Of a DNA stretch of 64,000 nucleotides, positions 1,284-23,563 are shown in pieces. Within the stretch, counting starts at the first letter, position 1; each line of letters begins with the position of its first letter. Source of the DNA: a virus; the IMG/VR virus record IMGVR_UViG_3300027734_000038. One strand, written 5' to 3'. A program made the position numbers and the translations under genes. The notes beneath the pieces are model-generated. The model saw only the letters and a program-made list of their open reading frames with translations, was not told the origin of the DNA and searched no databases.

Positions 1284-2339
1284 ATGACAATACTACAAAG
1301 TTCTATCGCAAGTAATGTAATCTCAGGAGCCACAGGTGCCACAGGTCCTTCTGGTTCTAATGGTACCAATGGAGCTACTGGTGCAACTGGTGCATCACCA
1401 TGGTCATTGAGTGGCTCAGATACATATTACACGGTTGGTAATGTAGGTATTGGTACTACTAGTCCTGCAAGCAAATTAGATGTAAAAGCTGGTACTGGCT
1501 CTGTAATTTCTCGTTCTACTAGCGGTACAAACTTTAAAGCGTTTTACGATGATGGTAGAACTACTTACACTTCTGTAAATTATGATGGCCTTTCTACAAC
1601 AGGAGCGCAAGATTTATTGCTTAATGCTGGAACTACTGCTTCACAAAATATGTTGTTTAGAACTGCTGACACAGAACGGATGCGTATTACTTCTGCTGGC
1701 GAATTGGGCGTTGGTGTAACTCCTAAAGCTTGGACCAATATTAAGTCAATTAGTTATGGGCAAAACGGTGCAGTTTATGGTGATGGTGCTAGTTATTCTT
1801 GGGCTTCTGGTATAGCTCAGAATAGTTACAACGAAACAAACGCATGGAAATATATTGCTTCAGGTTATTCTGCTAATAGATATGAACTTTCTGGTGATAA
1901 TGGAAGTCATGTTTGGTACACCGCTGGGTCAGGCACAGCAGGCGGCACTATTAGTTTTACGGAACAAGGGCGTTTTACTAGCGCAGGTGTTTTTCAGTTT
2001 AATTCAGGTTACGGTTCATCCGCTGCAGCATATGGTTGTCGTGCATGGGTTCATTTTACTGCAAGTAATGGCACAAGAAACGGTTCAGGAAATGTAAGTT
2101 CTGTAACCAGAAATGGCACGGCTGACTACACAGTAAATTTTGCTACTGCAATGCCAGATGGTAATTATGCAATTACCGGTTGTTTAAAACCAACTTCAGG
2201 TCAAACAGGTAATAATGCTCGAGATGTTCATGTAGCAGCAGAAACAGGTGCAAGCACATCTTCATTTAGAATTAGAACTGTTACTGCTGGTGCTGGTTTT
2301 GAAGAACCGGAATATGTTTATGTAGCAGTATTCAGATAA
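1284..2339 (+). CDS. tail fibre protein (short collagen, GNVGIGT/ERMRI repeats, C-terminal tip)
   Basis: GAT triplets; GNVGIGTTSP and TERMRI fibre repeats. Confidence 0.75.
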   Translation: MTILQSSIASNVISGATGATGPSGSNGTNGATGATGASPWSLSGSDTYYTVGNVGIGTTSPASKLDVKAGTGSVISRSTSGTNFKAFYDDGRTTYTSVNYDGLSTTGAQDLLLNAGTTASQNMLFRTADTERMRITSAGELGVGVTPKAWTNIKSISYGQNGAVYGDGASYSWASGIAQNSYNETNAWKYIASGYSANRYELSGDNGSHVWYTAGSGTAGGTISFTEQGRFTSAGVFQFNSGYGSSAAAYGCRAWVHFTASNGTRNGSGNVSSVTRNGTADYTVNFATAMPDGNYAITGCLKPTSGQTGNNARDVHVAAETGASTSSFRIRTVTAGAGFEEPEYVYVAVFR

Positions 2340-2348
2340 AAATAAAAA

Positions 2349-2987
2349 ATGACCTCATTAAGTAACTTAATATCTTCTGCAATCTCTGGTGCCACAGGTG
2401 CCGTAGGTCCTACTGGTCCCACAGGACCAAATGGTGCATCTGGTCCAGCCGGTCCTACAGGTCCATTAGGACCAACTGGTGCAACAGGCGTAACTGGTCC
2501 TACAGGACCAACTGGTGGTCAAGGTGCCACAGGTGTTACAGGTCCTACGGGTCCATTAGGACCTACAGGACCAGCTGGTGCTACTGGTCCTGCCGGTTCT
2601 GTTGGAGTTACATCCCTTAACGGACAAACTGGTGCAATTACTAATACAGACATAGATGCTATTGGTAGTGTGATTGTTGCGGTGTATGCTATTAATGCTC
2701 CTAGCACAGCACCAGGGACATATGGATGGCAAACAACTAATGCAAATACTACAGTTGCGGGTTCAAATTTACGCTATAACTTTACTATACCTACATATAC
2801 AGAAGTTGCGGGAATTAGAAGTTGGTATACAAAAAACGTAGGTAGTAATTCGCCAAGTTATAACGGTGGCGGCACATCGCTTTCAGGAACTTGGAGAACT
2901 TTAAGTTATGAAAACAGATTTGGTTCAGAAGGTGACGGTAATTGGAGTTTTAGTTGGAATCCAGTATTATGTGTAAGAGTTTCTTAA
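2349..2987 (+). CDS. collagen-like fibre protein with C-terminal tip
   Basis: More than 20 G-X-T triplets, then ...LSGTWR...LCVRVS. Confidence 0.75.
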
Positions 2988-2999
2988 AAGGATAAAATA

Positions 3000-3263
3000 A
3001 TGTTTACTATTCAATATGTTAAAGATTTGCAATGGTGTGATACAGAACACACTTTTTTTACTTGCGTTGCTAAATACGAAGAATTTAACGAAGAACATCC
3101 AACTGGTGTAAATGCAACTGACCATTATGCTCATATACAAGAAATTTGGGCTAAAGGTAATGCAGGCGAATATGGGGTAATTGCTGAATACATACCGCCA
3201 CCACCTGAAATCCCACCACTTCCTGATCCCGTAGTAACACCTGAACCGCCTGTTTTGGAGTAA
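3000..3263 (+). CDS. small fibre-assembly partner protein
   Basis: AGGA RBS; GEYGVIAEY-PPP motif typical of fibre chaperones; follows tip gene. Confidence 0.55.
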   Translation: MFTIQYVKDLQWCDTEHTFFTCVAKYEEFNEEHPTGVNATDHYAHIQEIWAKGNAGEYGVIAEYIPPPPEIPPLPDPVVTPEPPVLE

Positions 3264-3265
3264 AT

Positions 3266-3412
3266 ATGGTTTATCCTAACTCTACACCTGAATTTCGCAT
3301 TGTTGTAAAGCAAAATGGTTCAGAAGAACTACAAGTGCGGTATATAAATTCAGCAATGGGTTACACAGGCAAATGGATGCCGGTAAAAATAGAAAAAGAA
3401 AAAGTAGAATAA
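3266..3412 (+). CDS. hypothetical 48-aa protein (not in ORF track)
   Basis: MVYPNSTPEFRIVVKQNGSEELQVRYINSAMGYTGKWMPVKIEKEKVE*; fills the gap between neighbours. Confidence 0.55.
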   Translation: MVYPNSTPEFRIVVKQNGSEELQVRYINSAMGYTGKWMPVKIEKEKVE

Positions 3413-3418
3413 TAATAA

Positions 3419-4327
3419 ATGGCAACTAATTCAAACTTTAAAATCAAGAATGGCCTGACAGTCAACACGACTGATGTTATTGCTGCCAACGGAGCTTGGA
3501 TTGGTATTGCTACAAACTTAGTAGGTGGCACAGGCGCAACAGGTGTTACAGGTCCTACAGGTGCGACAGGCGTTCAAGGACTTTTAGGGCCCACAGGTCC
3601 TACTGGTGCCACGGGTATTACGGGTTCAACAGGACCAGATGGTCCAACCGGCCCAACCGGTTCTACAGGACCAACAGGTCCATTAGGTGCAACTGGTCTA
3701 ACAGGACCACAAGGTGCGACAGGCGTTACTGGTCCATCAGGTCCAGTCGGTTCAACAGGTATCACAGGACCTACTGGTCCTACAGGCCCAGCCGGTCCTA
3801 CTGGTGCAACTGGTGGTTTGCAAGCTTGGCTTGTAATTACTGCTAATACAGCTGCATCAGGCAACACACAATATATTGCTAACACAGCTGCTGGTTCATT
3901 TACATTAACATTACCTGCAACACCAAACATTGGTTCAACAGTTGCTGTTGCCGATGGTTACAGTTGGGGTGCCAACAATTTAGTTGTAGCACGCAATGGT
4001 TCTACTATTGAAAGAGTTGCAGATGATATCTCTCTCAATATTACAAACAGTTTAGTTTATTTTGTATACACAGGCGACACATGGCAGGTTGTATCTACTG
4101 CTGGTCCTGCCGGTGCAACTGGTGCTACAGGTGCAAATGGTAGTAATGGTGCTTCTGGTGCCACAGGTCCTGGTGGTTCATATACTGGATTTGTAATTCA
4201 CACAGATACTATTCAAGCAAACACAACGATTGCTTCAGGCAATAATGCCTTGTCTGTTGGACCAATCACACAAGCAAACAATGTCACAGTAACTCTTGCT
4301 AGCGGTCAACGCTGGATAGTAATCTAA
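3419..4327 (+). CDS. collagen-like fibre stalk/adaptor (gp34-like repeat domain; C-terminal SVGPIT adaptor)
   Basis: MATNSNF N-terminus shared with 7297; GPT collagen; FTLTLPATP...[11 protein letters not shown] domain; ends [24 protein letters not shown]. Confidence 0.75.
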
Positions 4328-4335
4328 GGAATAAC

Positions 4336-4926
4336 ATGGCTCTCATTTTTGATGGCACAACCGGTACAATTAGTGGAGCAGTAGTTGCCAACACACAGTT
4401 GTCTGGCACAATGACTTCTTCACAAATTGGTTCTGTTTCTAATACATCAATTACAGGCACTATGGCATACTCACAGATGCCTTCAGGTAGTGTTGTTCAA
4501 GTTGCTGTGGGTCAAACAGATTTTAACGGTACTTTAACTGAAGGTGCTTCATATACTGTTGGTTCAGCAATTACTCCTGTAACTAGTTATTCTAAACTAT
4601 TAATGGTTGGTAATGTATATTTGCGTTCACCTTATGCTTATGGTGGTTATGGCGATTATACTATTGGACCTAACTACGGTATTGGTAATAGCCTTTCAGA
4701 TTCAAGTAGTACCTATACAATATTTCTTCAAGGCATGAACTCTGGTAATTTTGGAGGAGGTTCTTATACTGCTTCATCAAGCACTCCAAGTATTATGCAT
4801 TATGCTGTAAAAGGCACCGGTTCTTGGACAACTTCTGACACTCCACGATATACTATGCAGATTGGTCCTGTTTATGGCGGAACCTATTGGGGTAAAATGA
4901 CAGTTATCTACTACTTTATTAAATAA
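4336..4926 (+). CDS. fibre tip protein (divergent type A)
   Basis: MPSGSVVQV...ITP...SKLL motif. Confidence 0.6.
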   Translation: MALIFDGTTGTISGAVVANTQLSGTMTSSQIGSVSNTSITGTMAYSQMPSGSVVQVAVGQTDFNGTLTEGASYTVGSAITPVTSYSKLLMVGNVYLRSPYAYGGYGDYTIGPNYGIGNSLSDSSSTYTIFLQGMNSGNFGGGSYTASSSTPSIMHYAVKGTGSWTTSDTPRYTMQIGPVYGGTYWGKMTVIYYFIK

Positions 4927-4933
4927 GAAAACT

Positions 4934-5263
4934 ATGGAACAAGCAATTAAATTTATAGAAGCTGTCATAACATTGAGGCCAAATTCTATTGGTAAATTTG
5001 CCACTAGTGGTATTGAAATTACGGAATGGCACGATGAAAATAATATTCAGCCAACAAATGAAGAAGTCTTAGCAGAAGTTGCAAGAAAAGAATCTGAGTA
5101 TGACAACAATGAGTATCAAAGAAATAGAGCAAAAAAATATCCAGCAATTGCGGACCAACTTGATATGTTATGGCACGCAATGGATACTGGAGCATTACCT
5201 AAAGTTGATTCATTCTATGACGCCATTCAAGCCGTTAAGAATGAGTATCCTAAAGCAGAATAA
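4934..5263 (+). CDS. type-A tip partner protein
   Basis: YQRNRAKKYPAIADQLDMLWH; paralog of 15759. Confidence 0.6.
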   Translation: MEQAIKFIEAVITLRPNSIGKFATSGIEITEWHDENNIQPTNEEVLAEVARKESEYDNNEYQRNRAKKYPAIADQLDMLWHAMDTGALPKVDSFYDAIQAVKNEYPKAE

Positions 5264-5273
5264 ATAATACACA

Positions 5274-6194
5274 ATGAGCACAATATCAGCCGGCACAAGT
5301 AACACTACCTCACTCGTATACACAGGTGATACGACAGGTAACTTAGCGTTCCAAATTAATGGAACTACCGAAGCCATGCGTATCACTTCTGGTGGAAATG
5401 TGGGAGTTGGTACTACTAGTCCAGAAAAGAATTTTGATATTCTTGTGACTGGATCCAACCCAACATCAAATTTGCAAGTTCGAGCAAATCGCACAGGATA
5501 CGGAAATGTTAGAGCAGGACTTTCTGTTTATGCAGCAGGTAGTTCTTCTACAGACATTACAACGTTGGTTAATGAAGGCGGTGTTTTAGCATTTCAAACA
5601 GGATCTACAGAACGGATGCGTATTAAATCTACTGGTGCTGTTGTTGTTGGTAAAACAACTGAATCAGGAATGGCTACTGGCAGTTCTGTAAATATGGGTA
5701 TATGTTTAAATGATAGTGGCAATCCAGGAATCCTTACTATTCAAGAAAATACTGATGCTAATTTATATTTGTCTAAAGCAAGCGGATATTCATCAGGCAT
5801 ATATACAAGATTTTATGTAACAGGTACACAAGTAGGTAAGATTGAAAGTAACGGATCATCTACGTCTTATGTGACTTCTTCTGACTATCGTTTAAAAGAA
5901 AATATTACACCAATGATTGGTGCTTTGGCTAAAATAGCGTTGTTAAAACCTGTTACTTACAAATGGAAAGCTAACGGTTCTGCAAGTGAAGGTTTTATTG
6001 CCCATGAATTGCAAGAGGTTTGTCCAGAGGCAGTAAGTGGAAAAAAAGATGCCGTAAATAAAAATGGAGATATTGAGCCACAAGGTGTTGACACATCATT
6101 CTTAGTGGCTACTTTAACTGCCGCTATTCAAGAACTAAACGCTAAAGTAGATGCACAAGCCGCAGAAATTGCCGCATTGAAAGGAAATAATTAA
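5274..6194 (+). CDS. tail fibre with C-terminal intramolecular chaperone (peptidase S74-like)
   Basis: SSDYRLKENI, GFIAHE, C-terminal coiled coil. Confidence 0.8.
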   Translation: MSTISAGTSNTTSLVYTGDTTGNLAFQINGTTEAMRITSGGNVGVGTTSPEKNFDILVTGSNPTSNLQVRANRTGYGNVRAGLSVYAAGSSSTDITTLVNEGGVLAFQTGSTERMRIKSTGAVVVGKTTESGMATGSSVNMGICLNDSGNPGILTIQENTDANLYLSKASGYSSGIYTRFYVTGTQVGKIESNGSSTSYVTSSDYRLKENITPMIGALAKIALLKPVTYKWKANGSASEGFIAHELQEVCPEAVSGKKDAVNKNGDIEPQGVDTSFLVATLTAAIQELNAKVDAQAAEIAALKGNN

Positions 6195-6982
6195 TGCCTT
6201 CAACCGTCAATGCAGACAATGGTGTATCATCAGGTTCAGTAGGTCTTAAATACGCCTCTGACAATAGCGGAGTATTGGCTCTACAAACAAATGGTAACAC
6301 AGCAGTAACGATTACATCTGCAAACAATGTGGGTATTGGAACAACAAGTCCAGATTCATTACTTCATGTAGTTAATCCATTGAGTGCTTCTATTCGTGTT
6401 GGTTATGCCGGCGGTTCTACAAATTATTATGATGCATCTGTTCACACATTTAGAGCAAACACAGGATCACCTTCTGTATTTGTGGCAAATCAATATGGTA
6501 TTGGATTAGGGACAGTTACACCATCTTCAGGTATGGGTATTGCTTTTCCAGCGGCACAAGTTGCTTCATCTGATCCTAATACATTAGATGATTATGAAGA
6601 AGGTACATTTACACCTATTGTTTATGGTGGCAGTTCTACTGGAACAACAACTTACAGTTCTCAATATGGAAAATATACAAGAATTGGAAATGTTGTAACT
6701 ATTAGCGCCCAAATGGATTGGACTTCTGCTACAGGAACAGGGTCAATGCAGATTGGAGGTTTTCCTTTTACGAGTTCTAGCACAACAGGTATTAATCCAA
6801 TTGGAACCGTAATGATGTATAATATTGCCGTTCCAGCAAGCAGTATTTTCTTTTCTCTATATACAAACGGTAATAATACTGTTGCAAATATTTATGCTAA
6901 TAGAGATAACAATACTTGGACTGCCGTTCAAATGGATTCTAACGCTATATTGTTATACACATTAACTTATTTTACGGCTTAA
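6194..6982 (+). CDS. tail fibre tip protein
   Basis: NVGIGTTSP; DPNTLDDYEEGTFTP...GKYTRIGNVVT domain. Confidence 0.7.
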   Translation: MPSTVNADNGVSSGSVGLKYASDNSGVLALQTNGNTAVTITSANNVGIGTTSPDSLLHVVNPLSASIRVGYAGGSTNYYDASVHTFRANTGSPSVFVANQYGIGLGTVTPSSGMGIAFPAAQVASSDPNTLDDYEEGTFTPIVYGGSSTGTTTYSSQYGKYTRIGNVVTISAQMDWTSATGTGSMQIGGFPFTSSSTTGINPIGTVMMYNIAVPASSIFFSLYTNGNNTVANIYANRDNNTWTAVQMDSNAILLYTLTYFTA

Positions 6983-7033
6983 TTATAAATTATCTAAAGT
7001 GGATTCTTTAGATGGACAAAAGGAGAAGTGAAA

Positions 7034-7285
7034 ATGGCATTAACAAAAGAAGTAGTAATCGATAAAGTAGAAGTAGTAGAAAACGGAATTGTTCAGGTTC
7101 GTCAAGTAACACGAATCATGGAAGATGGTAATCAATTATCTTCTTCCTATCACCGTTGGACATTAACACCAGGTCAAGATGTAACTGACCAAGAATCAAA
7201 AGTTCAAGCAGTATGTAATGCTGTGTGGACAGAAGAAGTTATTGCTGCATACGAAGCACAACAAGAAGCTAACAGACCAGTTTAA
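7034..7285 (+). CDS. small partner protein of preceding tip
   Basis: MALTKEVVIDKVEV...VQAVCNAVWT; AGGAG RBS. Confidence 0.6.
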   Translation: MALTKEVVIDKVEVVENGIVQVRQVTRIMEDGNQLSSSYHRWTLTPGQDVTDQESKVQAVCNAVWTEEVIAAYEAQQEANRPV

Positions 7286-7296
7286 TAAAGTAAATA

Positions 7297-8106
7297 ATGG
7301 CAACTAATTCAAACTTCATAATTAAAAATGGCCTGACAGTAGGCGCTAATACTGTTATTGCCGCTAACGGTATGTGGGTTGGTGCCAACACAAATTTAGT
7401 AGGTGCCACAGGTATTGCTGGTCCAACAGGACCTACAGGTCCACAAGGTTCAACAGGTCCTGCCGGTCCAACTGGTGCAACAGGTACTATTACCGCATGG
7501 ACTAGAGTTACTGCCAATACAAATCTTACAGCCAATGCACAATACATTGCTGATACATCTGGTGGTCCTTTTACTGTAACACTACCAGCAACTCCATCTT
7601 TAGGAACTATTGAAGTTATTTCTGATGGCGCTGCATGGGGTAATAACAATCTGACAGTTGCTCGTAATGGTTCTACTATTGAAGGACAGGCACAAGATTT
7701 AATATTAAATATTTCAACTAGTTTAGTGTATTTAATTTATGATGGCACTACTTGGAATCTTACTTCGACTGCTGGTCCACAAGGTGCCACCGGTCCTTTA
7801 GGTCCTACTGGACCAACAGGTGCGACTGGTGCAGGTTCTACTGGTGCCACCGGTTCTACTGGACCTGGAGGTCCTGCCGGTCCATCCGGTCCAACAGGTC
7901 CAACTGGTGCAACAGGTGCTTTTTCTGGCACGACAGCAGCACAGATTATAACAACAAACACAACTGCAGCTACTTCTAATATAACCGGTTCTATTATTGG
8001 TGCTGGTGGTTTAGGTGTTTCAGGTAATGTTTATGCAGATGCAGTTTATTCTGGTGGTCAAGAAGTTATTGGAACAAGTCTAGCCTTTTCAATTGCTTTG
8101 GGGTGA
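7297..8106 (+). CDS. collagen-like fibre stalk/adaptor
   Basis: Paralog of 3419 (N-terminus, collagen, LTLPATP domain); ends AFSIALG. Confidence 0.75.
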   Translation: MATNSNFIIKNGLTVGANTVIAANGMWVGANTNLVGATGIAGPTGPTGPQGSTGPAGPTGATGTITAWTRVTANTNLTANAQYIADTSGGPFTVTLPATPSLGTIEVISDGAAWGNNNLTVARNGSTIEGQAQDLILNISTSLVYLIYDGTTWNLTSTAGPQGATGPLGPTGPTGATGAGSTGATGSTGPGGPAGPSGPTGPTGATGAFSGTTAAQIITTNTTAATSNITGSIIGAGGLGVSGNVYADAVYSGGQEVIGTSLAFSIALG

Positions 8107-8109
8107 TAA

Positions 8110-8802
8110 ATGAATAGTGGAATATATTGCATAACAAATACTATAACCGGTAAAAAATATATTGGTCAAAGTAAAAATATTAAAAGAAGATTTAATAGCC
8201 ATAAAAGAGCATCTGTAACCAAGAAAAAAGGTGAATGTTTTTATTTACAAAATGCAATTGGTAAACATGGTATAGATAATTTTACTTTTGAAATATTGTT
8301 ATATGCAACAGATAGAGATTATTTAAACATTATGGAACGAAAATGTATAATTGAATTCGATACATTATCTCCTAATGGTTATAATTTGGATACTGGTGGT
8401 TATTTTAATAAAACCATTAGTGAATCAACAAGACAAAAAATGAATGGTAGAACTCCTTGGAATAAAGGTGTTCCTATGTCAGAAGAACAAAAACAAAAAT
8501 TATCTAAAATGAAAAAAGGAAAACCTGCGGCCAACAAAGGAGTTCCTGCTTCAGAAGAACAGAAAAGAAAACAATCAATTGCAATGAAAGGAAAACCTGC
8601 GGTTAATAAAGGTATTCCTATGTCTGAGGAACAAAAAAAGAAGCTTCGTAAAGCGGATAAATCTTACACTCAGACACCAGAGTATAGAAAAAAGATGAGT
8701 GAATCTCTTAAAAAAAGAGTCATTTCACCAGAGCATAGGGCAAAAATTAACGCCGGACAAAGGTTAAGAGCCGAACTAAATAGAAGTAGAAAAGGATTAT
8801 AA
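8110..8802 (+). mobile_element. free-standing GIY-YIG homing endonuclease with NUMOD3-like repeats (Seg-like)
   Basis: SGIYCITN...KKYIGQS, conserved R and E, NGYN; three NKG.P.SEEQK repeats; more AT-rich than its neighbours. Confidence 0.9.
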
Positions 8803-9131
8803 TGGCCAATACATTTACAAGTTATCTCAATAAGAATATTCCAACTACGGGTGCAACTGTTGTAACCGCTTCTGGTGGAACACAGACTACAGTTATTGGC
8901 CTATCTTGTGCAAACATTTCTACTGCAAATACTATTACTGCTGATGTTTATATTACTCGTTCAGCAGTAGATTATTATTTGGTTAAAGGTGCTACAGTAC
9001 CTATTGGTGGTTCTCTTGTGGTAGTTGGCGGAGACCAAAAGGTTGTTCTTGTTGCTGGCGATGCACTCAAAGTGGTGTCATCTGCAAACACTTCAATGGA
9101 TGTTGTTACATCTGCACTAGTCATCTCATAA
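8802..9131 (+). CDS. small virion structural/adaptor protein
   Basis: MANTF...; beta-rich, QKVVLVAGDALKV; type common in fibre loci of T4-like phages. Confidence 0.6.
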   Translation: MANTFTSYLNKNIPTTGATVVTASGGTQTTVIGLSCANISTANTITADVYITRSAVDYYLVKGATVPIGGSLVVVGGDQKVVLVAGDALKVVSSANTSMDVVTSALVIS

Positions 9132-9140
9132 GGATAATTA

Positions 9141-10445
9141 ATGTCTTTTATTGGGAATAGTTTTACTAATCAAACATTTGTTCCACAAGTAGATTACTTT
9201 AATGGTAATGCCTCTAATACTGCATTTACTTTAAGTAGAAATGTTGCCTCAGCTGCTGATGTTCAAGTGGTTATCGAAAACGTACCACAGAATCCATCAT
9301 CAGCATTTACAGTATCAGGTAATGTAATCACATTTACTTCTGCACCACCTAGTGGCACAAACAACATCTATGTTCGTTACACAAGTCCAACAACCAATTT
9401 GGTTAAGCCGGCTCCTGGTACAGTAAGTAATACAGAAATTAGTTCTGCATTTTCTTTGTGGAATTTAAGTGGTGCTGATATTAATTATACAGCAGGTAAT
9501 GTGGGGATTGGTACTGCTAGTCCGACAGGAAAGTTAAATGTTGTTCAAAACGGAACTCCTATTATTTCTCAATTTAATAGGACTGATGCTGGAACAGGAC
9601 TTGTTATAGCTGCAGATTCTTCTGGACCATATTTTAGACCCACAACAAGTAGTGCAATTCGCTGGAATAATTCAGGTAATACAGTAGAATATATGCGAAT
9701 TGATTCTAATGGTAATATTGGTATTGGTGCTACTAGTCCTTGGTCACAAGTTTCAATGTTAACGCCAGCTGGAGGAACAGACGGATATTTTGGTGTTAAA
9801 GACACTACTTATGGTGGTGATGTTCGTTTTGGCAAAGCAAGTGGTATTAACAATAATGCAATTGCAGGAGTTTGGTCAAATAACGAATTTCTGTTTTACA
9901 CCAACGGCACAGAACGGATGCGTATTAGTTCTGGTGGTAATTTTCTTGTTGGCGGCACAACACCAATAGGAACAGATGGAAACTTATTAGCAAGCGCTGA
10001 TTACACATCAACTTATAGAAGCACAGGAACTTCTGGTGCTTATATTCATGCTTTTGCATCTGATATAGGTGGAACAAGAACAGTTAAATATGCCGTTTAT
10101 GCTAACGGAACTGTAGGCGCAGTATCAGACCAAAACTTTAAAAAGAATATTGAACCAGCTAGAAATTACCTTGCTGATTTAATGAATATTGAAGTTGTTA
10201 AATACAACTGGAAATCAGATGAAGAAAATGCACCTAAAGAATTAGGTTACATTGCTCAACAAGTAGAAACTGTTTTTGCTGGAATGGTTGATGAGCAAAC
10301 ATATAAAGATGGTAATGGCGAAGAAGTAACACAAAAAATGTTGAAGAAAGAAGTGTTTGTGCCCATGCTTCTCAAAGCAATACAAGAACAACAAGCAATT
10401 ATAGAAGATTTAAAATCTCGTATTGAAGTATTGGAGGCCAAATAA
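9141..10445 (+). CDS. tail fibre with S74-like chaperone domain
   Basis: MSFIGN; FNG..AFTL...FTSAPP domain; GNVGIGT repeats; VSDQNFKKNI, GYIAQQ. Confidence 0.8.
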   Translation: MSFIGNSFTNQTFVPQVDYFNGNASNTAFTLSRNVASAADVQVVIENVPQNPSSAFTVSGNVITFTSAPPSGTNNIYVRYTSPTTNLVKPAPGTVSNTEISSAFSLWNLSGADINYTAGNVGIGTASPTGKLNVVQNGTPIISQFNRTDAGTGLVIAADSSGPYFRPTTSSAIRWNNSGNTVEYMRIDSNGNIGIGATSPWSQVSMLTPAGGTDGYFGVKDTTYGGDVRFGKASGINNNAIAGVWSNNEFLFYTNGTERMRISSGGNFLVGGTTPIGTDGNLLASADYTSTYRSTGTSGAYIHAFASDIGGTRTVKYAVYANGTVGAVSDQNFKKNIEPARNYLADLMNIEVVKYNWKSDEENAPKELGYIAQQVETVFAGMVDEQTYKDGNGEEVTQKMLKKEVFVPMLLKAIQEQQAIIEDLKSRIEVLEAK

Positions 10446-14409: not shown

Positions 14410-14573
14410 TGAGTTTATATGATAAAATTGTTGCACTTTATCCAGAATTAGTTGCTACTGATTTTTCTCCGTCTATGGGTTCAATCAGGTTGCAAGATGA
14501 AGGTAATGGTGTTTATATTGCCAAATGGGAACACCCAACATTACCTAAACCTACGGATGAACAGTTAGCATGA
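14409..14573 (+). CDS. XkdW-like small partner protein
   Basis: MSLYDKIVALYP...DF...LQDEGNGVYIAKW...PKPTDEQL resembles PBSX XkdW N-terminus. Confidence 0.65.
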   Translation: MSLYDKIVALYPELVATDFSPSMGSIRLQDEGNGVYIAKWEHPTLPKPTDEQLA

Positions 14574-15091
14574 CCACAACAATTAACGCAAGTACCTCTG
14601 CCGGTTTAATAATTACTCCTGATACTTCAGGTAATATTCAGTTACAATATAATGGTGTGGCTGCACCAGCATTTAGTGCTTATGTTACAGGAAATCAAAG
14701 TATTTCTTCAGGTACTTTTACAAAAATGCAATGTGGTACAGAAGAATGGGATACAGCTAGTTGTTATGATAACGCAACAAATTATAGGTTTACTCCTACT
14801 GTTGCCGGATACTATCAATTTAATGGTATGTGGGGTGCGGCTTCAGGATCACCAACAAGAGTTATTATAGCCTTGTATAAAAATGGTAGTGTTGCTAGAT
14901 ATGGATTAGATTTAGGTATAAGTTCTGCAGGATTCAATAATGGAGCAGGAGATGTGGTTAGTTCCATGTTATATCTAAATGGCACAACCGATTATGTTGA
15001 ACTTTATGCATATGCCGCAGGTGGTGCAACAATCCAAGGCGGAAATAGTGCATCTGGTTATTTTCAAGGTTACTTAGCAAGAGCTGTTTAA
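14570..15091 (+). CDS. fibre tip type B (C1q-like)
   Basis: PAFSAY...RFTPTVAGYYQ...YLNGTTDYVELY. Confidence 0.7.
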   Translation: MTTTINASTSAGLIITPDTSGNIQLQYNGVAAPAFSAYVTGNQSISSGTFTKMQCGTEEWDTASCYDNATNYRFTPTVAGYYQFNGMWGAASGSPTRVIIALYKNGSVARYGLDLGISSAGFNNGAGDVVSSMLYLNGTTDYVELYAYAAGGATIQGGNSASGYFQGYLARAV

Positions 15092-15109
15092 TATTTAAAA
15101 GGAAACAAA

Positions 15110-15292
15110 ATGAAAACTTTATACGAAAAAATTCTATCAATCTATCCAGAACTAACTGATGCTGATTTTATGCCAGGTCGTGGCACAATTATGCTTCAGA
15201 ATGATTCTGACGGCCGTGGTGATTACATCAGAGAATGGAATCATGCAACATTGGCAGAACCAACAGAAGAACAATTAGCGAGCGCTGAATAA
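15110..15292 (+). CDS. XkdW-like small partner protein
   Basis: LYEKILSIYP...LQNDSDGRGDYIREWN...PTEEQL. Confidence 0.65.
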   Translation: MKTLYEKILSIYPELTDADFMPGRGTIMLQNDSDGRGDYIREWNHATLAEPTEEQLASAE

Positions 15293-15738
15293 TGTCTATT
15301 GTATTGAACGGTACTAATAATCAAATTACTGGAGTACCGGGATTGGTATTGCAAGTGGTTAGTTCTACTTTTACTTCTTCGTTTTCTTCTTCATCGGGAA
15401 GTTTTGTTTCTATAGGATTAACCGCATCTATTACACCAACAAGTTCTTCAAGTAAAATTTTGATATTAATAGATTCGTTTGTTCGTAGTGATGCTGCAAA
15501 TTTTGTTGATGCAACAATTTATAAAAATTCCACTAATTTAGGTGGAGCATATGGTTTAAAAAATGCTTATGTAAACGCAGCATTTGTTATGCCAATTCCG
15601 TTTACTTATTATGATTCACCAGCAACAACTTCTTCAACTTCTTATACATTGTATATGCGGACTGAAAATGCCGCCACTTTTTACTTAGAAGCTGCTGGTA
15701 GAGTTTCAACAATCACACTTATGGAAATAGCAGCTTAA
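15292..15738 (+). CDS. fibre tip type A
   Basis: LVLQVVS...ITPTSSSSKILI...YDSPATTS...ITLMEIAA. Confidence 0.7.
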   Translation: MSIVLNGTNNQITGVPGLVLQVVSSTFTSSFSSSSGSFVSIGLTASITPTSSSSKILILIDSFVRSDAANFVDATIYKNSTNLGGAYGLKNAYVNAAFVMPIPFTYYDSPATTSSTSYTLYMRTENAATFYLEAAGRVSTITLMEIAA

Positions 15739-15758
15739 TTTAACAAAAAGGAAACAAA

Positions 15759-16055
15759 ATGAGAATCTCTAAAATTGATGCAATCTTATCTCTATCACCT
15801 GGTGCTGAAGTAGTAGTGCGTGGTGAAGAAGTAGAATGGATTAATCCTTCTACTGCACCTGTAACTGAAGCACAAATTGCTGCTGAGTTGGTAAGACTCC
15901 AAGCAGCCTACGAAGCAAAACAATATCAGCGTGACCGTGCTGGTGAATATCCAGCAATTGGTGACCAATTGGATGCTTTGTTCCATGCAGGAGTATTCCC
16001 TGAAGCCATGGCAGAAATCATTCAGGCCGTCAAAGATAAATACCCTAAATCATAA
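15759..16055 (+). CDS. type-A tip partner protein
   Basis: YQRDRAGEYPAIGDQLDALFH; paralog of 4934. Confidence 0.65.
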   Translation: MRISKIDAILSLSPGAEVVVRGEEVEWINPSTAPVTEAQIAAELVRLQAAYEAKQYQRDRAGEYPAIGDQLDALFHAGVFPEAMAEIIQAVKDKYPKS

Positions 16056-16068
16056 TTTAGGATAATCA

Positions 16069-16692
16069 ATGCAATATCAAAGTTTCGTTGCTGGGTCAGG
16101 AATATCAGGTGCTACCGGTCCAACCGGTGCTACTGGTGTCATTGCACCGTGGACAAGAATCTCCGCAAATACAAGTGCTTCGGCTAATACACAGTATCTA
16201 GCCAACACAGCAACTGGTGCCTTCACTCTAACATTACCAGGTACACCATCAGTTGGTGTTATGGTAGTGATTGCTGATGATTATAACTTTGGTGCAAACA
16301 ATCTTTTTGTTGCAAGAAATGGTTCTACTATTCAAGGCATTGCTGATGACTTAGGTATTAACATCAGCAACTCATTGACAACATTGATTTATGATGGTAC
16401 TACTTGGAGAGTTTCTACAAATGCTGGACCACAAGGTGCAACTGGTGCCACAGGTCCTACAGGAACTTCTGGTACCAACGGTGCCACAGGTGCTACCGGT
16501 TTAGGTGCTACTGGTGCTACTGGTGCCAGTTTGTTTGCTGATTCCAATAATGTTATTTTTTTAAATAATACGTTGATTACTTCTAACACAACATTGCAAC
16601 CAGGTCGTGGTGCATTTTCTGTTGGACCAATCTCTGTTAATACAGGTGTTCAACTTATTGTTTCATCTAACACAAGGTATGTGGTACTATGA
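16069..16692 (+). CDS. collagen-like adaptor (gp34-like domain + SVGPI domain)
   Basis: [11 protein letters not shown]-terminus; FTLTLPGTP domain; ends FSVGPISV...RYVVL. Confidence 0.7.
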   Translation: MQYQSFVAGSGISGATGPTGATGVIAPWTRISANTSASANTQYLANTATGAFTLTLPGTPSVGVMVVIADDYNFGANNLFVARNGSTIQGIADDLGINISNSLTTLIYDGTTWRVSTNAGPQGATGATGPTGTSGTNGATGATGLGATGATGASLFADSNNVIFLNNTLITSNTTLQPGRGAFSVGPISVNTGVQLIVSSNTRYVVL

Positions 16693-17222
16693 GTAATATT
16701 ATTCTAGGCTCAGGACCTTCAGGTTCAGGTTCATTAACCTTACAAGCACCGAATACAAATAGTAATCAGACAGTTAATTTTCCTGATGCTTCTGGCATAC
16801 CCATGGTTAGTGGTAATATGCCAGCGTTTTATGCTTATCAAAATTCAGCACAATCAATTCCAAATGTAACTTGGACTAAAGTATTGTTTCAAGTAGAAGA
16901 ATTTGATACTAATAGTAATTTTGCTTCAAGCCGTTTTACTCCTACTGTTGCTGGTTATTACCAACTTACTTCTCAATTGCAATATACAACTATTGCTGGT
17001 GGAAGAAATATGTTTGTAATATATAAAAATGGTGCTGAGTATAGACACCTACAGGATATGCAAACAAGTTACACTATTGGATTAATGGGAACTTCATTAG
17101 TTTATGCAAATGGTTCATCAGACTATTTTGAAATTTATATTTATACGTCAACTGGTGCATACACATTAGATAATAATTCAGCAATAACATATTTTAGCGG
17201 TTGTTTAGTGAGGGCTGCATAA
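16689..17222 (+). CDS. fibre tip type B (C1q-like)
   Basis: GSLTLQAP N-terminus; MPAFYAY...RFTPTVAGYY. Confidence 0.7.
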   Translation: MSNIILGSGPSGSGSLTLQAPNTNSNQTVNFPDASGIPMVSGNMPAFYAYQNSAQSIPNVTWTKVLFQVEEFDTNSNFASSRFTPTVAGYYQLTSQLQYTTIAGGRNMFVIYKNGAEYRHLQDMQTSYTIGLMGTSLVYANGSSDYFEIYIYTSTGAYTLDNNSAITYFSGCLVRAA

Positions 17223-18322
17223 TGCCATACGGTTCAATCTCAGTAGACCAAATTAATAACACCACAGGATATTCTCTTGGTGCTGGTAACGCTTCTATTA
17301 TGAAGAATCGCATTATCAATGGTGCGATGGTTATTGACCAAAGAAATGCTGGTGCTAGTGTTACGCCAGCAAATAACACTTACACTTTAGACCGATGGAA
17401 TACTTATCAAAGCACTTCTTCTGCTTATAGTGTTCAACAAAATGCTGGTTCTGTAACACCACCATTAGGGTTTACAAACTATCTTGGCGTAACTTCTTTA
17501 GCAGCAACTTCATTATCTGCTGGAAGTTATTTTATGCTTACTCAAATTATTGAAGGATTTAATGTTGCTGATTTAGGTTGGGGAAGTGCTAACGCCAAAA
17601 CTATAACATTATCTTTTTGGGTGCGTAGTTCTTTAACTGGAACATTTGGCGGATCTTTACAAAATGGTGGAACAAGAAGCTACCCATTTACTTACACAAT
17701 TTCTGCCGCAAATACTTGGGAACAAAAATCAATTACTGTTGCAGGTGATACAAGTGGAACTTGGGCAACAGATAATACTGCTGGCATTAAATTACGAATT
17801 GGTCTTGGTGTTGGCACAACCGCAAGCACAACTGCTGGCGCATGGGCAACCGGCGATTACTATTCAGCAACAGGTGCCACTTCAATAGTAGGAACAAACG
17901 GTGCCACATTCTATATTACTGGAGTTCAGTTGGAAGTTGGAAGTGTGGCCACAGGTTATGAATATGAAAATATTGCTCAAACTTATTCAAAATGCCAACG
18001 CTATTACACAGTTTTGTTATCAGGCAACGATAAGAGTTTATGCCTTGCAACTTGGTATAACACTTCAGAATGGGATGCAGTAGTATTTTTTCCAACGATG
18101 CGGTCAGCACCTACAGCATCATCAACAACAGTATCTTCTGGATATTATTTTGATAAATTAGGTGGCAATATTACTTTTGACAATATTAGTGGTGTTTTTG
18201 GTGCTGGCTTAAATGTTGCACAACCATACAAAGTGGCATTAAGTGGCGGTGTTGCTGGTTATTGCGGAAGCATTAGAACTTTAAATGCTTCTTGTTTTAT
18301 TGCTTTAAGTGCGGAGTTATAA
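17222..18322 (+). CDS. fibre tip type C (CBM-like)
   Basis: KNRIINGAM...ITGVQLEVG...CQRYY...LSAEL; TAATG overlap fixes the start. Confidence 0.7.
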   Translation: MPYGSISVDQINNTTGYSLGAGNASIMKNRIINGAMVIDQRNAGASVTPANNTYTLDRWNTYQSTSSAYSVQQNAGSVTPPLGFTNYLGVTSLAATSLSAGSYFMLTQIIEGFNVADLGWGSANAKTITLSFWVRSSLTGTFGGSLQNGGTRSYPFTYTISAANTWEQKSITVAGDTSGTWATDNTAGIKLRIGLGVGTTASTTAGAWATGDYYSATGATSIVGTNGATFYITGVQLEVGSVATGYEYENIAQTYSKCQRYYTVLLSGNDKSLCLATWYNTSEWDAVVFFPTMRSAPTASSTTVSSGYYFDKLGGNITFDNISGVFGAGLNVAQPYKVALSGGVAGYCGSIRTLNASCFIALSAEL

Positions 18323-18323
18323 A

Positions 18324-18491
18324 ATGACCTATCAATTATCAAATTTTCGTGGCAAATTAGCTTGCATTGTAAAAACTGATGGTAACATGAAACATTTTAT
18401 TCCTTTATCGAAAGATAACACCGATTACCAAGAATATCTAAAATGGGTTGCAGAAGGTAACACACCAGAACCAGCAGAAGGCACAGAATGA
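18324..18491 (+). CDS. type-C tip partner protein
   Basis: IPLSKDNTDYQEYLKWVAEGNTPEPA. Confidence 0.7.
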   Translation: MTYQLSNFRGKLACIVKTDGNMKHFIPLSKDNTDYQEYLKWVAEGNTPEPAEGTE

Positions 18492-18961
18492 CAACGACTA
18501 TTGACGGTAATTCAGGAGTTATATTTCCAAATAACACTACACAAGCTAGTGCTGGTCAAGTGTTGCAGGTGGTTAATGGCACTTATTCAGGCCCCTATTT
18601 TTCAACAACAAGTACCACTTTTGTATCTACTGGATTAACGGTAACTATTACACCTAAGTTTGTTACAAGTAAAATTTTATTACTTTTACAAGTTGAAGTT
18701 TATAATGATACAGCAAATAAAGGTGGTGATTTAACCATTTATAAAAATGGTGCAAATTTAGCCTCAGGTTTATTAGGAAGAATGTATCCTATTTCTGGTC
18801 AATTAGCTATTAATATTCCTATTAATTATTACGATTCGCCATCAACAACATCAGCAACAACTTATACACTTTATATTAAAACAACAAATGCTGGATATGC
18901 TTTCAATGCTTTTCAAGATGCTTTTCCATCAACAATTACTGCATTGGAAATAGCAGCATGA
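18488..18961 (+). CDS. fibre tip type A
   Basis: GQVLQVV...ITPKF.TSKIL...YDSPSTTS...ITALEIAA. Confidence 0.7.
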   Translation: MTTTIDGNSGVIFPNNTTQASAGQVLQVVNGTYSGPYFSTTSTTFVSTGLTVTITPKFVTSKILLLLQVEVYNDTANKGGDLTIYKNGANLASGLLGRMYPISGQLAINIPINYYDSPSTTSATTYTLYIKTTNAGYAFNAFQDAFPSTITALEIAA

Positions 18962-19329
18962 CAATATACTTAGGGCAAATTGCTGGTTCTGGAATATCTG
19001 GTGCAACCGGTCCTACAGGTCCAACTGGACCATCTGGTGCTACTGGTGTATTTCCAACAAGCAGTTCAGCTAACTTAGCAATCACTAATGCCAATACATC
19101 AACATCAAATACTACTGGTGCTCTGACTGTTGCAGGTGGTGTAGGTGTTACAGGTAATGTATGGGTAGATACTGTTGTTGTTACGAATGGTTTGATACTT
19201 AATTCTAACACAATAAATAGAAGTTATACAGTACCAGACAATTACAATGCTGGTTCATTTGGTCCAATCACAGTAGCAAACTCTGCGATTGTTACAGTAC
19301 CAAGTGGTTCAATTTGGACCGTGGTTTAA
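18958..19329 (+). CDS. short collagen adaptor with C-terminal GPIT domain
   Basis: [10 protein letters not shown]; TGALTVAGGVGV; ends SFGPITVANSAIVTVPSGSIWTVV. Confidence 0.7.
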   Translation: MTIYLGQIAGSGISGATGPTGPTGPSGATGVFPTSSSANLAITNANTSTSNTTGALTVAGGVGVTGNVWVDTVVVTNGLILNSNTINRSYTVPDNYNAGSFGPITVANSAIVTVPSGSIWTVV

Positions 19330-19338
19330 GGATAAAGA

Positions 19339-19848
19339 ATGACATTCAAAGTTGATGGATCAAACGGATTAACATTTCCAAATAACACTACACAAGCTAG
19401 TGCTGGCCAAGTGTTGCAAGTTGTTCAAGCAGAATATGCCACACAAGTATCTTTATCTTCTATAACATATACAGATACCGGATTATCCGCAACCATTACT
19501 CCTAAATTTGCAACAAGTAAAATTTTAGTTAATATAAGTCAAAATCTATACATATACAGAGAGTTTGCATTTCAATATGGATATCTTCAACTATTGAGAA
19601 ATGGTTCTGTTGCAAAAGATTTTAGATTAGTTATGAATCAAACTGCTGGAAATCCTGCTGGCGGAAGTTATCCTTACCACGACATGAGTGCGGTTGTTGG
19701 ATTAAGTTATTTGGATTCACCAGCAAGCACTTCTGCTTTAACATATAAAACACAACAAAAATGTGGAACAACAAGCAATGGCGGAACAATAATTGCTCAA
19801 ATTGATAGTGCTCCATCTTTCATTACACTTATGGAGATTGCAGCCTAA
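19339..19848 (+). CDS. fibre tip type A
   Basis: GQVLQVVQ...YLDSPASTS...ITLMEIAA. Confidence 0.7.
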   Translation: MTFKVDGSNGLTFPNNTTQASAGQVLQVVQAEYATQVSLSSITYTDTGLSATITPKFATSKILVNISQNLYIYREFAFQYGYLQLLRNGSVAKDFRLVMNQTAGNPAGGSYPYHDMSAVVGLSYLDSPASTSALTYKTQQKCGTTSNGGTIIAQIDSAPSFITLMEIAA

Positions 19849-20399
19849 TGCCAATTAAATTACAATCTTCTTCTGGTGGTTCAGTTACTTTAGATGTGCC
19901 GGTCACAGCAAGTAACTTTAATGTAACTGTACCTAATGCTTCTGGTACTGCTATGGTTAGCGGTAATATGCCAGCGTTTAGTGCTTATAAAACTTCCCAT
20001 CAAAGTTATTCAAATAATACTTGGACAAAAATAACTTACGACACAGAAGAATATGATACCAATAGTAATTTTGCTTCAAGCACTTTTACTCCCACAGTTG
20101 CAGGGTATTATCTGTTTACTGCAAGAAACCAATTTATTGCAGATGGAGTTGCAATGGCTGAAATAAATTCAGCGTTTTTTAAAAATGGCACTATTGCTAA
20201 AACAGGAACTTATAAGTATCAACCAGCGGCACTTACTGCACAATTTGGAAGTAACATTTCTGCTGTAATTTATTGCAACGGTACAACAGATTATGTTGAA
20301 TGTTACGGAAGAACTGACGGAAGCACTTTGTATGTTTATGGTGCAGCTGGTGCGGCGCCTTACACATACTTTCAAGGCATTTTAATGAGGGCTGCATAA
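19848..20399 (+). CDS. fibre tip type B (C1q-like)
   Basis: GSVTLDVP N-terminus; MPAFSAY...FTPTVAGYY...DYVECY. Confidence 0.7.
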   Translation: MPIKLQSSSGGSVTLDVPVTASNFNVTVPNASGTAMVSGNMPAFSAYKTSHQSYSNNTWTKITYDTEEYDTNSNFASSTFTPTVAGYYLFTARNQFIADGVAMAEINSAFFKNGTIAKTGTYKYQPAALTAQFGSNISAVIYCNGTTDYVECYGRTDGSTLYVYGAAGAAPYTYFQGILMRAA

Positions 20400-21487
20400 T
20401 GTCGGTACAATACGGCGGAGATAAAATAACATTTGCTGATGGTTCTTCTACATCTAGTGGATATACTTTTAGAAATAGAATCATTAACGGTGCCATGGTT
20501 ATAAGCCAATATAACGGCACAAGTAGTGTATCAATAGATAACACTAAAAACCAATACTACATTGACAGATGGGCTATTCAAAACAATACTGGTTCTGCGG
20601 TGTTTTCTTATCAACAAGTTACAACTGCACCAACCGGATTTAACAATAGTTTAAAAATAACTGTTACTACTGCTGATGGTTCTTTAACTTCTACTGCTAA
20701 AGCACAAATTTATCAACCAATTGAAGGTTACAACATTGCCGATTTAGGATGGGGAACTGCCAACGCCAAATCCGTTACCTTGTCATTTTGGGTTCAATCT
20801 AGTGTAACAGGAACTTTTGGTGGTGCATTGGGCAACAATGCTAATGATAGAAGTTATCCATTTACATATACAATCTCATCAGCAAATACTTGGGAACAAA
20901 AATCAATTACCATTGCTGGTGATACAACAGGCACTTGGCTAACTACTAATGGTTTAGGCATCAATGTTGATTTTAGTTTAGGTGCTGGAACTTCTCGTAG
21001 TGGAACTGCTGGTACTTGGGGTGGTGCTTGGTACACTTCTGCTACTGGTGCAACTAATTTATTAGCTACAAACGGAGCCACATTCTACATTACTGGTATT
21101 CAGTTTGAAGTAGGAAGTTCATCAACAACTTTTGAAGCTCGTGATTACGGAAATGAATTAAGAATGTGTCAGCGGTATTATCAGTTATGTAATGGATTTC
21201 TTGGAACTCCGGGCGCTTCTACTACAATCATGTATACATCTATTCAATACCAAGTTGCAATGAGAGCAAATCCATCTTTAGGACAAACAGGAGTTATTAA
21301 TATGACTGCACCCGGTGTTGATACATGGCAACAATCTAGCACAGGTATAGCAGCTGGAGGCCAAAATACAACAGGAACATGGATTCAATTAAACAATTTT
21401 TCTGGTTTAACTCAGCATAGACCATATGTCCAGTCCGTTAATTATGCTGGCAATGGATATGTTATTACTTTATCTGCGGAGTTATGA
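20399..21487 (+). CDS. fibre tip type C (CBM-like)
   Basis: RNRIINGAM...ITGIQFEVG...CQRYY...LSAEL. Confidence 0.7.
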   Translation: MSVQYGGDKITFADGSSTSSGYTFRNRIINGAMVISQYNGTSSVSIDNTKNQYYIDRWAIQNNTGSAVFSYQQVTTAPTGFNNSLKITVTTADGSLTSTAKAQIYQPIEGYNIADLGWGTANAKSVTLSFWVQSSVTGTFGGALGNNANDRSYPFTYTISSANTWEQKSITIAGDTTGTWLTTNGLGINVDFSLGAGTSRSGTAGTWGGAWYTSATGATNLLATNGATFYITGIQFEVGSSSTTFEARDYGNELRMCQRYYQLCNGFLGTPGASTTIMYTSIQYQVAMRANPSLGQTGVINMTAPGVDTWQQSSTGIAAGGQNTTGTWIQLNNFSGLTQHRPYVQSVNYAGNGYVITLSAEL

Positions 21488-21648
21488 TGATTTATAAATT
21501 AATGAATGTAATGGGACATGAATCGGTAAGTTTATTTAAAGATACAGAATTTGTAATGAATATTCCATTTGATCCAGATAACACAGATTACCAAAAATAT
21601 CTAAAATGGGTTGCAGAAGGCAACGAACCATTACCAGCGGACGAATAA
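21484..21648 (+). CDS. type-C tip partner, 54 aa (not in ORF track)
   Basis: ...IPFDPDNTDYQKYLKWVAEGNEPLPADE*. Confidence 0.75.
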   Translation: MMIYKLMNVMGHESVSLFKDTEFVMNIPFDPDNTDYQKYLKWVAEGNEPLPADE

Positions 21649-21651
21649 TAA

Positions 21652-23151
21652 ATGCCAATCTATCAATCAGTTGTTGCGGGTTCAGGAATATCAGGTGCTA
21701 CAGGACCTAATGGTGCTACTGGCGTTACAGGACCTACAGGACCAAATGGACCAACAGGCCCAACCGGACCAGCTGGTGCTACCGGTGTAACTGGACCAAC
21801 AGGACCAGCTGGTGCTACTGGACCAAATTCAATTGCAGCTGTATCAGACCAATCAAATAGTTCTACAGGATATCTTGCATTACCGGCAGGTACATCAGGA
21901 CAAAGACCGGGTAGTTCTGCAAATGGATACACAAGATTAAACACCACCGTTGGTGCAGTAGAATCTTATTTCAATGGTAAATGGCAAGCAATTACAACTT
22001 TTGCAACGGTACCTAATGCACCAACTGCTGTATCTGCGGTTGCTGGTGATGCTCAAGCTGTAGTATCGTTTACTGCACCAGCAAATAATGGTGGATCAAC
22101 AATCACATCTTATACGGCAGTATCTTCTCCAGGTGGATTTACTGCATCAGTTTCACAATCAGGTTCAGGTAGTGTTACTGTAACAGGTTTATCAAATGGT
22201 ACTGCATACACATTTACAGTATTTGCCACAAATGCTATTGGTAGTGGTGCATCAAGTTCTGCAAGTGGTTCAGTAACACCAGTTGCACCAGTAGTTGTTT
22301 CTTCACTTATTATTGCTGGTGGAGGAGGCGGCGGAGCGTATTACCAAGCTGGTGGTGGCGGTGCTGGTGGATATATAAATTCATTTGCTTCAGAAACATC
22401 TGGTGGAAACTCAGCTACTGCGGCAAAATCAAGCGTAGCTGTTGGAACTGTTCTTACTGTAACAGTTGGCGGTGGCGGTAATGGTGGATCAGGATTAGGT
22501 TCTGTTGGTTCGCAAGGAAGTTCATCTTCTATTATTGGAACTGGAATGTCGGTGACTGCTACTGGTGGCGGATACGGTTCATCAGGCCAAAATGCAAGCC
22601 CTCCTGCTGGTGGTAATGGTGGTTCTGGTGGTGGTGGTGCTGACTATGTGCCAGGCACAGCATCTGCAGGTGGTTCTGGCATTGCTGGACAAGGATCAAA
22701 CGGGTCTGCTCCCCCTCATGCAGGTCCTTCTTATGGTTCTGGAGCTGGTGGTGGTGCAGGACAAATCGGTCAAACTGGAAGTGGTACTGTTGGCGGTGTA
22801 GGCGGTGCAGGTTTATCTTCGTCTATTACCGGAACTGCTACAACTAGAGGCGGTGGAGGTGGCGGGTCTTGTTACTCAGGTTCTGGTGGTCAAGGCGGTG
22901 CTGGTGGTTCTGGTGGTGGCGGTAACGGGTCTACTGGCGCTGGTGGCGCTGGTACGCCTAATACTGGTGGCGGTGGTGGCGGTGGTGAGCGAGGTGGGGC
23001 TGGAACAGGTGGAAATGGTGGTAAAGGAGTTGTTATTATTAGCGTGCCCACTTCGCAATATTCAGGAACATCTAGCGGAGCCTCCACAATTTCTACGGCT
23101 GGGTCAAATACTTACTTAGTATTTAATGACTCTGGAAGTTATACAGTTTAA
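21652..23151 (+). CDS. collagen + fibronectin type III + glycine-rich fibre/adhesin
   Basis: GPT triplets; PNAPT...[13 protein letters not shown]...[18 protein letters not shown] (FN3); poly-Gly loops. Confidence 0.8.
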
Positions 23152-23164
23152 TTAAGGAAAAAAT

Positions 23165-23563
23165 ATGGCTTATTTTGCAAAATTAAACTCTCAAAATATA
23201 GTAGAACAAGTCGTTTCTGTAGGCAATGAAATGCTTTTAGATAACGGCATCGAGTCTGAAGCTAAAGGCATAGAATTTTTACGTGCCCTATATAACGAAC
23301 CAAATGCCGTTTGGGTGCAAACATCTTATAACAGCAGAGGCGGTATGCATACTAACGGTGGTATTTCATTCAGAAAAAACTATGCGGCTATTGGTGGCCT
23401 ATACGATATAGTTCGTGACGCCTTTATTCCTAGAAAACGATATGGTTCTTGGATATTGAATGAAAATACTTGTTTATGGGAATCTCCGACACCCATGCCA
23501 AATGATGGTAAACAATATATTTGGGATGAAATAACAAAATCTTGGACAGAAATAACAGAATAA
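23165..23563 (+). CDS. partner protein of glycine-rich adhesin
   Basis: MAYFAKL...WVQTSYN...FRKNYA.IG..YD...DAFIP...W...W, a family that follows Gly-rich fibres. Confidence 0.6.
   Translation: MAYFAKLNSQNIVEQVVSVGNEMLLDNGIESEAKGIEFLRALYNEPNAVWVQTSYNSRGGMHTNGGISFRKNYAAIGGLYDIVRDAFIPRKRYGSWILNENTCLWESPTPMPNDGKQYIWDEITKSWTEITE

Follow-up and report, generated by a model that had tools for sequence, protein, structure and literature searches.

The 64-kb stretch of viral DNA analysed here (IMG/VR record IMGVR_UViG_3300027734_000038; hereafter, the window) contains, at positions 1-23563, a fibre locus that, to judge from its sequence, probably specifies a single fibre apparatus, branched at several levels, on a T4-like virion. 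Genes are named below by their start coordinates in the window (e.g., 13667), and L-numbers denote related viral loci. The locus contains six socket modules, SA, SB, SC, SD, SE, and AD, each of which predicts the N-terminal peptide, or plug, of later genes. The initial annotation, made from the letters of the window, had read this arrangement as a depth-first walk of a hyperbranched fibre tree built from orthogonal plug-socket pairs. All the genes and motifs that it named, including five ISGATG gene starts, are present on the + strand where it placed them, and its interpretation as a whole is partly supported.

Profiles for five of the modules were built from the window and 311 related viral loci. 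The N-terminal 18-mers of 1,349 fibre genes were clustered blind to gene order, the clusters being then grouped into plug classes by inspection; this yielded one plug class per socket. Across 229 de-duplicated loci, the next fibre gene carried the cognate plug in 55/58 cases for SA (maximum in shuffled data, 28), 107/110 for SB (29), 69/86 for SC (29), 70/75 for SD (18), and 105/130 for AD (32). These counts exceed those of all 1,000 shuffles, as expected from the earlier claim that sockets and plugs co-occur and adjoin beyond chance. Where one gene bears two sockets, the first child to appear is that of the socket nearer the C-terminus (72/73). Moreover, a last-in-first-out stack parse finds the plug that matches the top of the stack in 18/18 cases in the window and in 592/655 over all loci, compared with 32% (maximum 39%) after shuffling. 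Taken together, the stack parse and the distal-child-first counts indicate that depth-first order is right for SA, SB, SC, SD, and AD. Socket and plug counts balance per locus.

Within a block common to many loci, AD is always followed by one g1 and then one g2 gene (73/73), the SC of g1 is associated with the MAIS subtype of the c plug (72/73), and that of g2 with the MALT subtype (57/57). Per plug class, the tips belong to between five and eight families. The SB/AD, SC/SD, and SA modules and the plug types also occur in the fibre runs of P-SSP7, S-SBP1, MEP401/402, ICBM1, CRP-13, and HTVC phages, whose GenBank annotations call the downstream genes hypothetical or tail fibre.

The profiles agree with the initial assignment of the FNG..APP domain (SC) to 9141 and 11549 and of the FTATAG domain (SD) to 11549 only. 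These two modules are paralogous, their profiles merging upon iteration. The SC model (predicted local distance difference test, pLDDT, 96) aligns to XD2 of CBA120 TSP4 (7rfv 189-250; Z 9.1, root-mean-square deviation 1.7, 62 residues). The T7 gp17 fibre anchor fold reaches a score similar to that of XD2 against this model, and the SC profile matches the 9k4a depolymerase twice (E 2e-10). As had been noticed, 7297 ends in an AIALG-type helix, designated SB, ahead of the adaptor gene 8802, with the GIY-YIG endonuclease gene 8110-8802 lying between; the identical start context of the two g genes measures 17 nt and occurs exactly twice in the 64 kb (9129, 11537). The AD model is a generic jelly-roll, whose top match (Z 9.9), an archaeal virus turret, is tied with several others. 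For SA and AD, no convincing sequence match was found in Pfam or PDB sequences and none in ESM Atlas, which does not by itself prove a new fold; matches in a metagenome scan were mostly to collagen, and no paper in the open-access literature was found to describe an SA or AD docking rule. On sequence grounds, SA, a 44-residue C-terminal module with three non-equivalent children, and AD, a jelly-roll adaptor with two, appear to belong to no known family. The SA profile matches 9,268 clusters at 50% identity; of the best 150, 149 have it at the very C-terminal end. Database proteins P0001-P0006 and P0145 have two to four tandem SA copies and are either real multi-hub proteins or assembly artefacts.

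SA forms the C-terminal end of 3419, 16069, and 18958. It also closes 13667, correctly recognized at the outset as a pure converter, in which a plug of 14 residues is joined by a linker to a C-terminal SA of 44. Each SA gene of the window is followed by exactly three fibre genes, a regularity that the initial annotation did not list. SA is carried by more than 30 different parent N-termini, and exactly three a-type genes follow it in 29/40 complete contexts, or six if one child has its own SA. With subtypes defined by hand, 33/35 triads contain exactly one short a3-type child, against 15.8 ± 3.0 expected by chance. In a held-out test on cultured phages, SA ends a fibre and three such genes follow in 7/9 cases: P-SSP7 gp17, S-SBP1, S-T4, MEP402, MEP301, ICBM1, and Vibrio phage 1.232.O. 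Analogously, among ten members of distant clusters picked blind to gene context, three children are present at 7/7 complete SA sockets, including a nested case, a lambda-like phage, and a contractile-tailed phage. The rule thereby spans podo-, myo-, and lambda-like phages. In P-SSP7 (L312:6413-7356), a fourth, a4-type gene (PSSP7_041) stands after the triad and an accessory gene and is a possible alternative tip.

SE, the TLP.TP domain of 3419, 7297, and 16069, is the least certain socket. It is homologous to XD1 of CBA120 TSP4 (91-179; E 2e-11), to T4 gp10 (58-145; E 9e-9), and to the N-terminus of gp34 (98-191; E 6e-11). Behind SE, e plugs are overrepresented (odds ratio 7.7, P 4e-10), and in held-out relatives there are as many ISGATG genes as SE domains in the stalk before them: two of each in L322, L324, and L291, and one of each in L325. 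Written as sockets and the plugs that follow, these relatives read EEA, aaa ee; EE, ee; E, e; and no socket, none. The association of this domain with ISGATG genes, already noted in the window, is in these respects also seen in relatives. Three SE domains of the window face three late ISGATG genes (16069, 18958, and 21652), which come only at the end of the locus. Placed after, and not within, the subtrees of their probable parents, these genes break strict depth-first order, and to that extent the original description of the gene order fails. From sequence, SE is plausible as a lateral, helix-binding site.

A tree with about 21 distinct terminal domains had been proposed; there are indeed 21 tip-bearing genes, but they represent about 8 families. 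Five tips are C1q-like, four or five LME-1 orf22-like, three belong to one 300-aa family, three are S74 fibres, two are of a short family, and the remainder are singletons. The tips measure 123-499 aa and feature S74, collagen, Fn3/Gly-rich, C1q-like (E 0.002), and LME-1 orf22-like (E 1e-16) domains. No family of lyases or hydrolases scored above the cut-off in the 20 fibre proteins scanned, of which the other six are paralogues. The short charged genes pair with tip families and not with plugs, each tip family having its own downstream accessory family; for example, a C1q-like tip goes with an XkdW-like accessory in 25/25 classified cases. This tip-accessory pairing is a second pairing layer, and the short charged genes are probably tip chaperones or caps.

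Cassette-wise growth, another element of the initial proposal, is seen across relatives as gain and loss of sockets with their plugs and as swaps of tips. The near-identical phages L001 and L175 keep plugs and exchange tips, and L233 is without the whole 16069-21648 stretch, its junction falling within shared ISGATG DNA. Between relatives, the exchange points are marked by conserved DNA where genes begin. The GIY-YIG/NUMOD3 endonuclease gene between the SB gene and the adaptor contains three 72-nt repeats and is absent from locus L001, which is 94-98% identical. A similar endonuclease insertion, copying an a1 start, is present in MEP301.

The sole complex modelled combined three copies of 11549(1-175) with three of 13667. 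Its score of 0.59, against 0.00 for the best control, is rated weak support: the score mark is reached by 58/80 solved and 2/110 mismatched pairs, and scores of 0.60 or under comprise just 7 solved pairs and both mismatches. The runs agree in at least 95% of contacts, and the pLDDT of the partner is at least 83. The output comes without an interface and therefore does not display a plug-SC contact. Orthogonality of the plug-socket pairs is supported by genome comparison, including held-out loci and cultured phages, as are the nested order, the converter gene, and growth by cassettes; physical binding would have this one weakly supportive prediction in its favour.

In our opinion, these data fit the following scheme. 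Each fibre would be a small homotrimer with an N-terminal docking peptide, an optional stalk with sockets, and then a tip or a terminal socket; it would most likely dock via its first 10-25 residues on a socket encoded upstream. SC and SD, XD2-type jelly-rolls, would each accept a single child, the peptide of which is of type c or d. The C-terminal helix SB would recruit the jelly-roll AD, bearing one g1 and one g2 fibre. SA is followed by three different children with beta-hairpin-like starts, usually including exactly one a3, and would bind all three, and SE would probably take one helical e-plug child. Genes sit beside their parent, most distal socket first, presumably because cassettes are gained, lost, and re-tipped via recombination where the DNA of plugs and sockets is conserved; the best explanation of the stack order is that new cassettes insert immediately after the parent, and an assembly programme is not required. 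The outcome would be about 20 non-enzymatic tips of about 8 families, suited to multivalent or broad attachment, with the deepest chain up to five links from the root (7297, AD, 11549, 13667, 13870). A root socket for the F.IKNG plug was sought: in five relatives a candidate domain precedes such genes, with counts that give no clean match. Genes with a YGE..LGTFDA C-terminal domain (L322:1-4600, L324, L325, L257) precede sets of three stalks with F.(I/V)KNG starts, and this domain may be the root socket of 3419 and 7297.

At SA and AD, the constant ratios of one to three and one to two, with children that are not equivalent, imply asymmetric or hetero-assembled hubs, since one gene could fill a symmetric socket. 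A bolder extension, which we put forward tentatively and regard as somewhat doubtful, is that SA is an undescribed and very common hub closed only by three different gene products, with three child trimers each contributing one N-terminal hairpin to complete every SA chain. Together with SB/AD, it would equip aquatic phages, whatever their tail type, with a recursive connector kit in common, so that the fibre architecture of a virion could be read from gene order by the stack rule.

Several observations weigh against the branched apparatus. The next-gene adjacency of SE is not significant (5/27), and XD1 has been described as a spacer, incapable of binding trimers across its axis (PMC8825819). 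The a subtypes were assigned after the data had been seen. P-TIM68 has two a genes before SA and S-B43 has one after it, both fitting in part; in the distant sample exactly one a3 is present in 5/7 triads, the other two being without a3, and L418 has no children after SA. In L333, six genes follow AD. The presence of these proteins together on one virion is deduced from their genes. Finally, AD/SC/SD loci often share one ancestral block, so that their counts are not independent. Because shared ancestry inflates the counts, cases that it cannot explain were sought. The next gene is a d gene in 58/60 cases for g genes with SD and in 0/92 for those without; two SD genes are followed by two d genes; and c genes come next in 11/13 cases where SC stands on long fibres that are unrelated. 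The six genes after AD in L333 all contain collagen and begin with MSQG in a near-identical way; in other lineages AD may have a different valence.

Ancestry is also the core of a very improbable reading, in which gene order reflects history only: blocks would be co-inherited, and conserved starts would serve as recombination anchors or trimerisation starts that bind no upstream domain. The swap points at gene starts and the synteny of the AD-g1-c-g2-d-c block in many loci agree with it, whereas the rules apply to parents that are unrelated, in podo-, myo-, and lambda-like phages, follow the gain and loss of domains, and include a fold already known for docking. It is unlikely, although the strict three-gene rule and the non-random subtype mix would be accounted for, that the SA triad forms one heterotrimeric tip, one chain from each gene, prolonging the parent, with SA as an end-to-end joint and far fewer tips. 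Children of about 120 aa in L410, L415, and Vibrio phage 1.232.O, which in L410/L415 are paralogues of similar fold, suit such a tip. Elsewhere the children are often unequal in length and family (196, 306, and 262 aa), some carry their own SA and three further children (L322, L416), and some carry S74 chaperones, which act in homotrimers.

We also consider quite unlikely a virion that holds a subset of the tree, the pairs binding as proposed while sockets are partly filled, or branches alternate at a few baseplate or neck sites, in mixed particles. A full tree on six fibres would be very large, the root attachment point lies outside the window, and distal fibre parts of P-SSP7 are unresolved in cryo-electron microscopy (10.64898/2026.08.19.745834). 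The per-locus balance of sockets and plugs argues for joint use, as do genes that abut on one strand without strong inverted repeats.

The principle of a branching domain that receives a docking peptide, and hyperbranched fibre systems as such, are already known; what this locus adds is its depth, its nested order, and two sockets apparently outside all known families. In CBA120 and T4 gp10, trimers of XD2 and XD3 have been proven to serve as docking sites (PMC8825819). CBA120 (Kuttervirus) TSP1-4 and G7C gp66/gp63.1 (PMC8825819, PMC11414711) resemble the scheme proposed here in hierarchical trimer docking, and the present locus in the XD2 fold of SC/SD and in the homology of SE to XD1. Those systems comprise four enzymatic tailspikes on two levels, compared with about 20 small non-enzymatic tips on up to five predicted levels here; they have no counterpart of the SA and SB/AD modules, and the short peptide plugs of this locus are a further difference. 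The tips of gp10-like (XD2/XD3) branched systems are beta-helical depolymerase tailspikes, which are missing from this locus; a branched complex on the virion, a further mark of such systems, is a prediction here. In Klebsiella phage KP32, a short N-terminal peptide of the next gene's product docks on the branching domain of the preceding one, as demonstrated experimentally (PMC13352976); that is one pair of two proteins, whereas several orthogonal pairs and sub-pairs are found here. The 14 fibres of phiKp24 lie in peripheral layers and have been modelled on gp10-like docking sites (PMC9700779); unlike the genes of this locus, its depolymerases are ranked by N-terminal length, with no cognate code or nested order described.

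In marine and freshwater phages, the fibre regions consist of long series of hypothetical genes, the distal products of which are unresolved in cryo-electron microscopy. Docking rules assign roles to thousands of such genes and predict which protein sits on which. From the three genes after the fibre, they suggest three-tip ends on the model cyanophage P-SSP7, S-SBP1, ICBM1, and MEP402, thought to have six simple fibres, and cultured phages amenable to genetics allow them to be tested. A further use would be as a toolkit for assembling proteins, made up of short orthogonal docking tags.

The locus comprises 40 abutting genes, all on the + strand; 27 are fibre-type (Ser/Thr/Gly/Asn-rich) and are interspersed with short charged genes (Table 1). 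The phage is an uncultured, aquatic T4-like myovirus with neck, terminase, sheath, and major capsid genes from 23615 onward, the closest cultured major capsid protein being that of Methylophilales phage Melnitz (67%).

Table 1. Features of the fibre locus, with coordinates in the window
Coordinates	Strand	Feature
2-328	+	3' part of tip gene truncated at window edge; tip in common with 1284
346-765	+	Accessory protein of truncated tip gene
770-1273	+	a3-plug tip gene; putative third child of SA socket upstream of window (by analogy with L322)
1284-2987	+	1284 and 2349, two ISGATG (e-plug) collagen tip genes; putative parent, two-SE gene upstream of window (by analogy with L322, L324)
3419-4327	+	Collagen stalk: F.IKNG plug; SE 3821-4108; SA 4193-4324
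4336-7285	+	SA triad 1: 4336 (a3), 5274 (a2, S74 chaperone), 6194 (a2); accessories 4934, 7034
7297-8106	+	Collagen stalk: F.IKNG plug; SE 7492-7779; SB, C-terminal hydrophobic helix
8110-8802	+	GIY-YIG/NUMOD3 homing endonuclease; insertion unrelated to tree
8802-9131	+	AD, stand-alone jelly-roll adaptor; after SB, before one g1 and one g2 gene
9141-10445	+	g1 fibre: plug; SC 9186-9395; S74 tip
10445-11539	+	c-plug (MAIS subtype) fibre, S74 chaperone; predicted child of 9141 SC
11549-12550	+	g2 fibre: plug; SC 11588-11794; SD 11813-12016; C1q-like tip
12550-13662	+	d-plug fibre (predicted SD child) and accessory 13501
13667-13873	+	Converter, 68 aa: c plug (MALT subtype); SA 13745-13870
13870-16055	+	SA triad 2: 13870 (a1), 14570 (a2), 15292 (a3); accessories 14409 (XkdW), 15110, 15759
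16069-16692	+	e-plug collagen stalk: SE 16144-16431; SA 16558-16689
16689-18961	+	SA triad 3: 16689 (a1), 17222 (a4), 18488 (a3); accessory 18324
18958-19329	+	Short e-plug stalk: SA 19195-19326
19339-21648	+	SA triad 4: 19339 (a3), 19848 (a1), 20399 (a5); accessory 21487
21652-23563	+	e-plug tip gene (collagen, Fn3, Gly-rich) and accessory 23165; T4-like neck gene next at 23615

By direct search, the canonical T4 late promoter (TATAAATA) does not occur in 1-24 kb and occurs just three times across the whole window. Inverted repeats are not strong, the best being 25-38 nt at 72-84%. Invertible or shufflon tail-fibre cassettes, with their inverted silent tips and crossover repeats, are not seen within the window: the genes are complete, lie on a single strand, and have their own starts, and the inverted repeats are weak. 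A charged open reading frame of 48 codons lies at 3266-3412, between 3000 and 3419. Past the neck genes, at 26409-28009, a fibre gene headed by Mtd_N, with internal repeats, is accompanied by a lectin-like gene; these two form a separate appendage pair.

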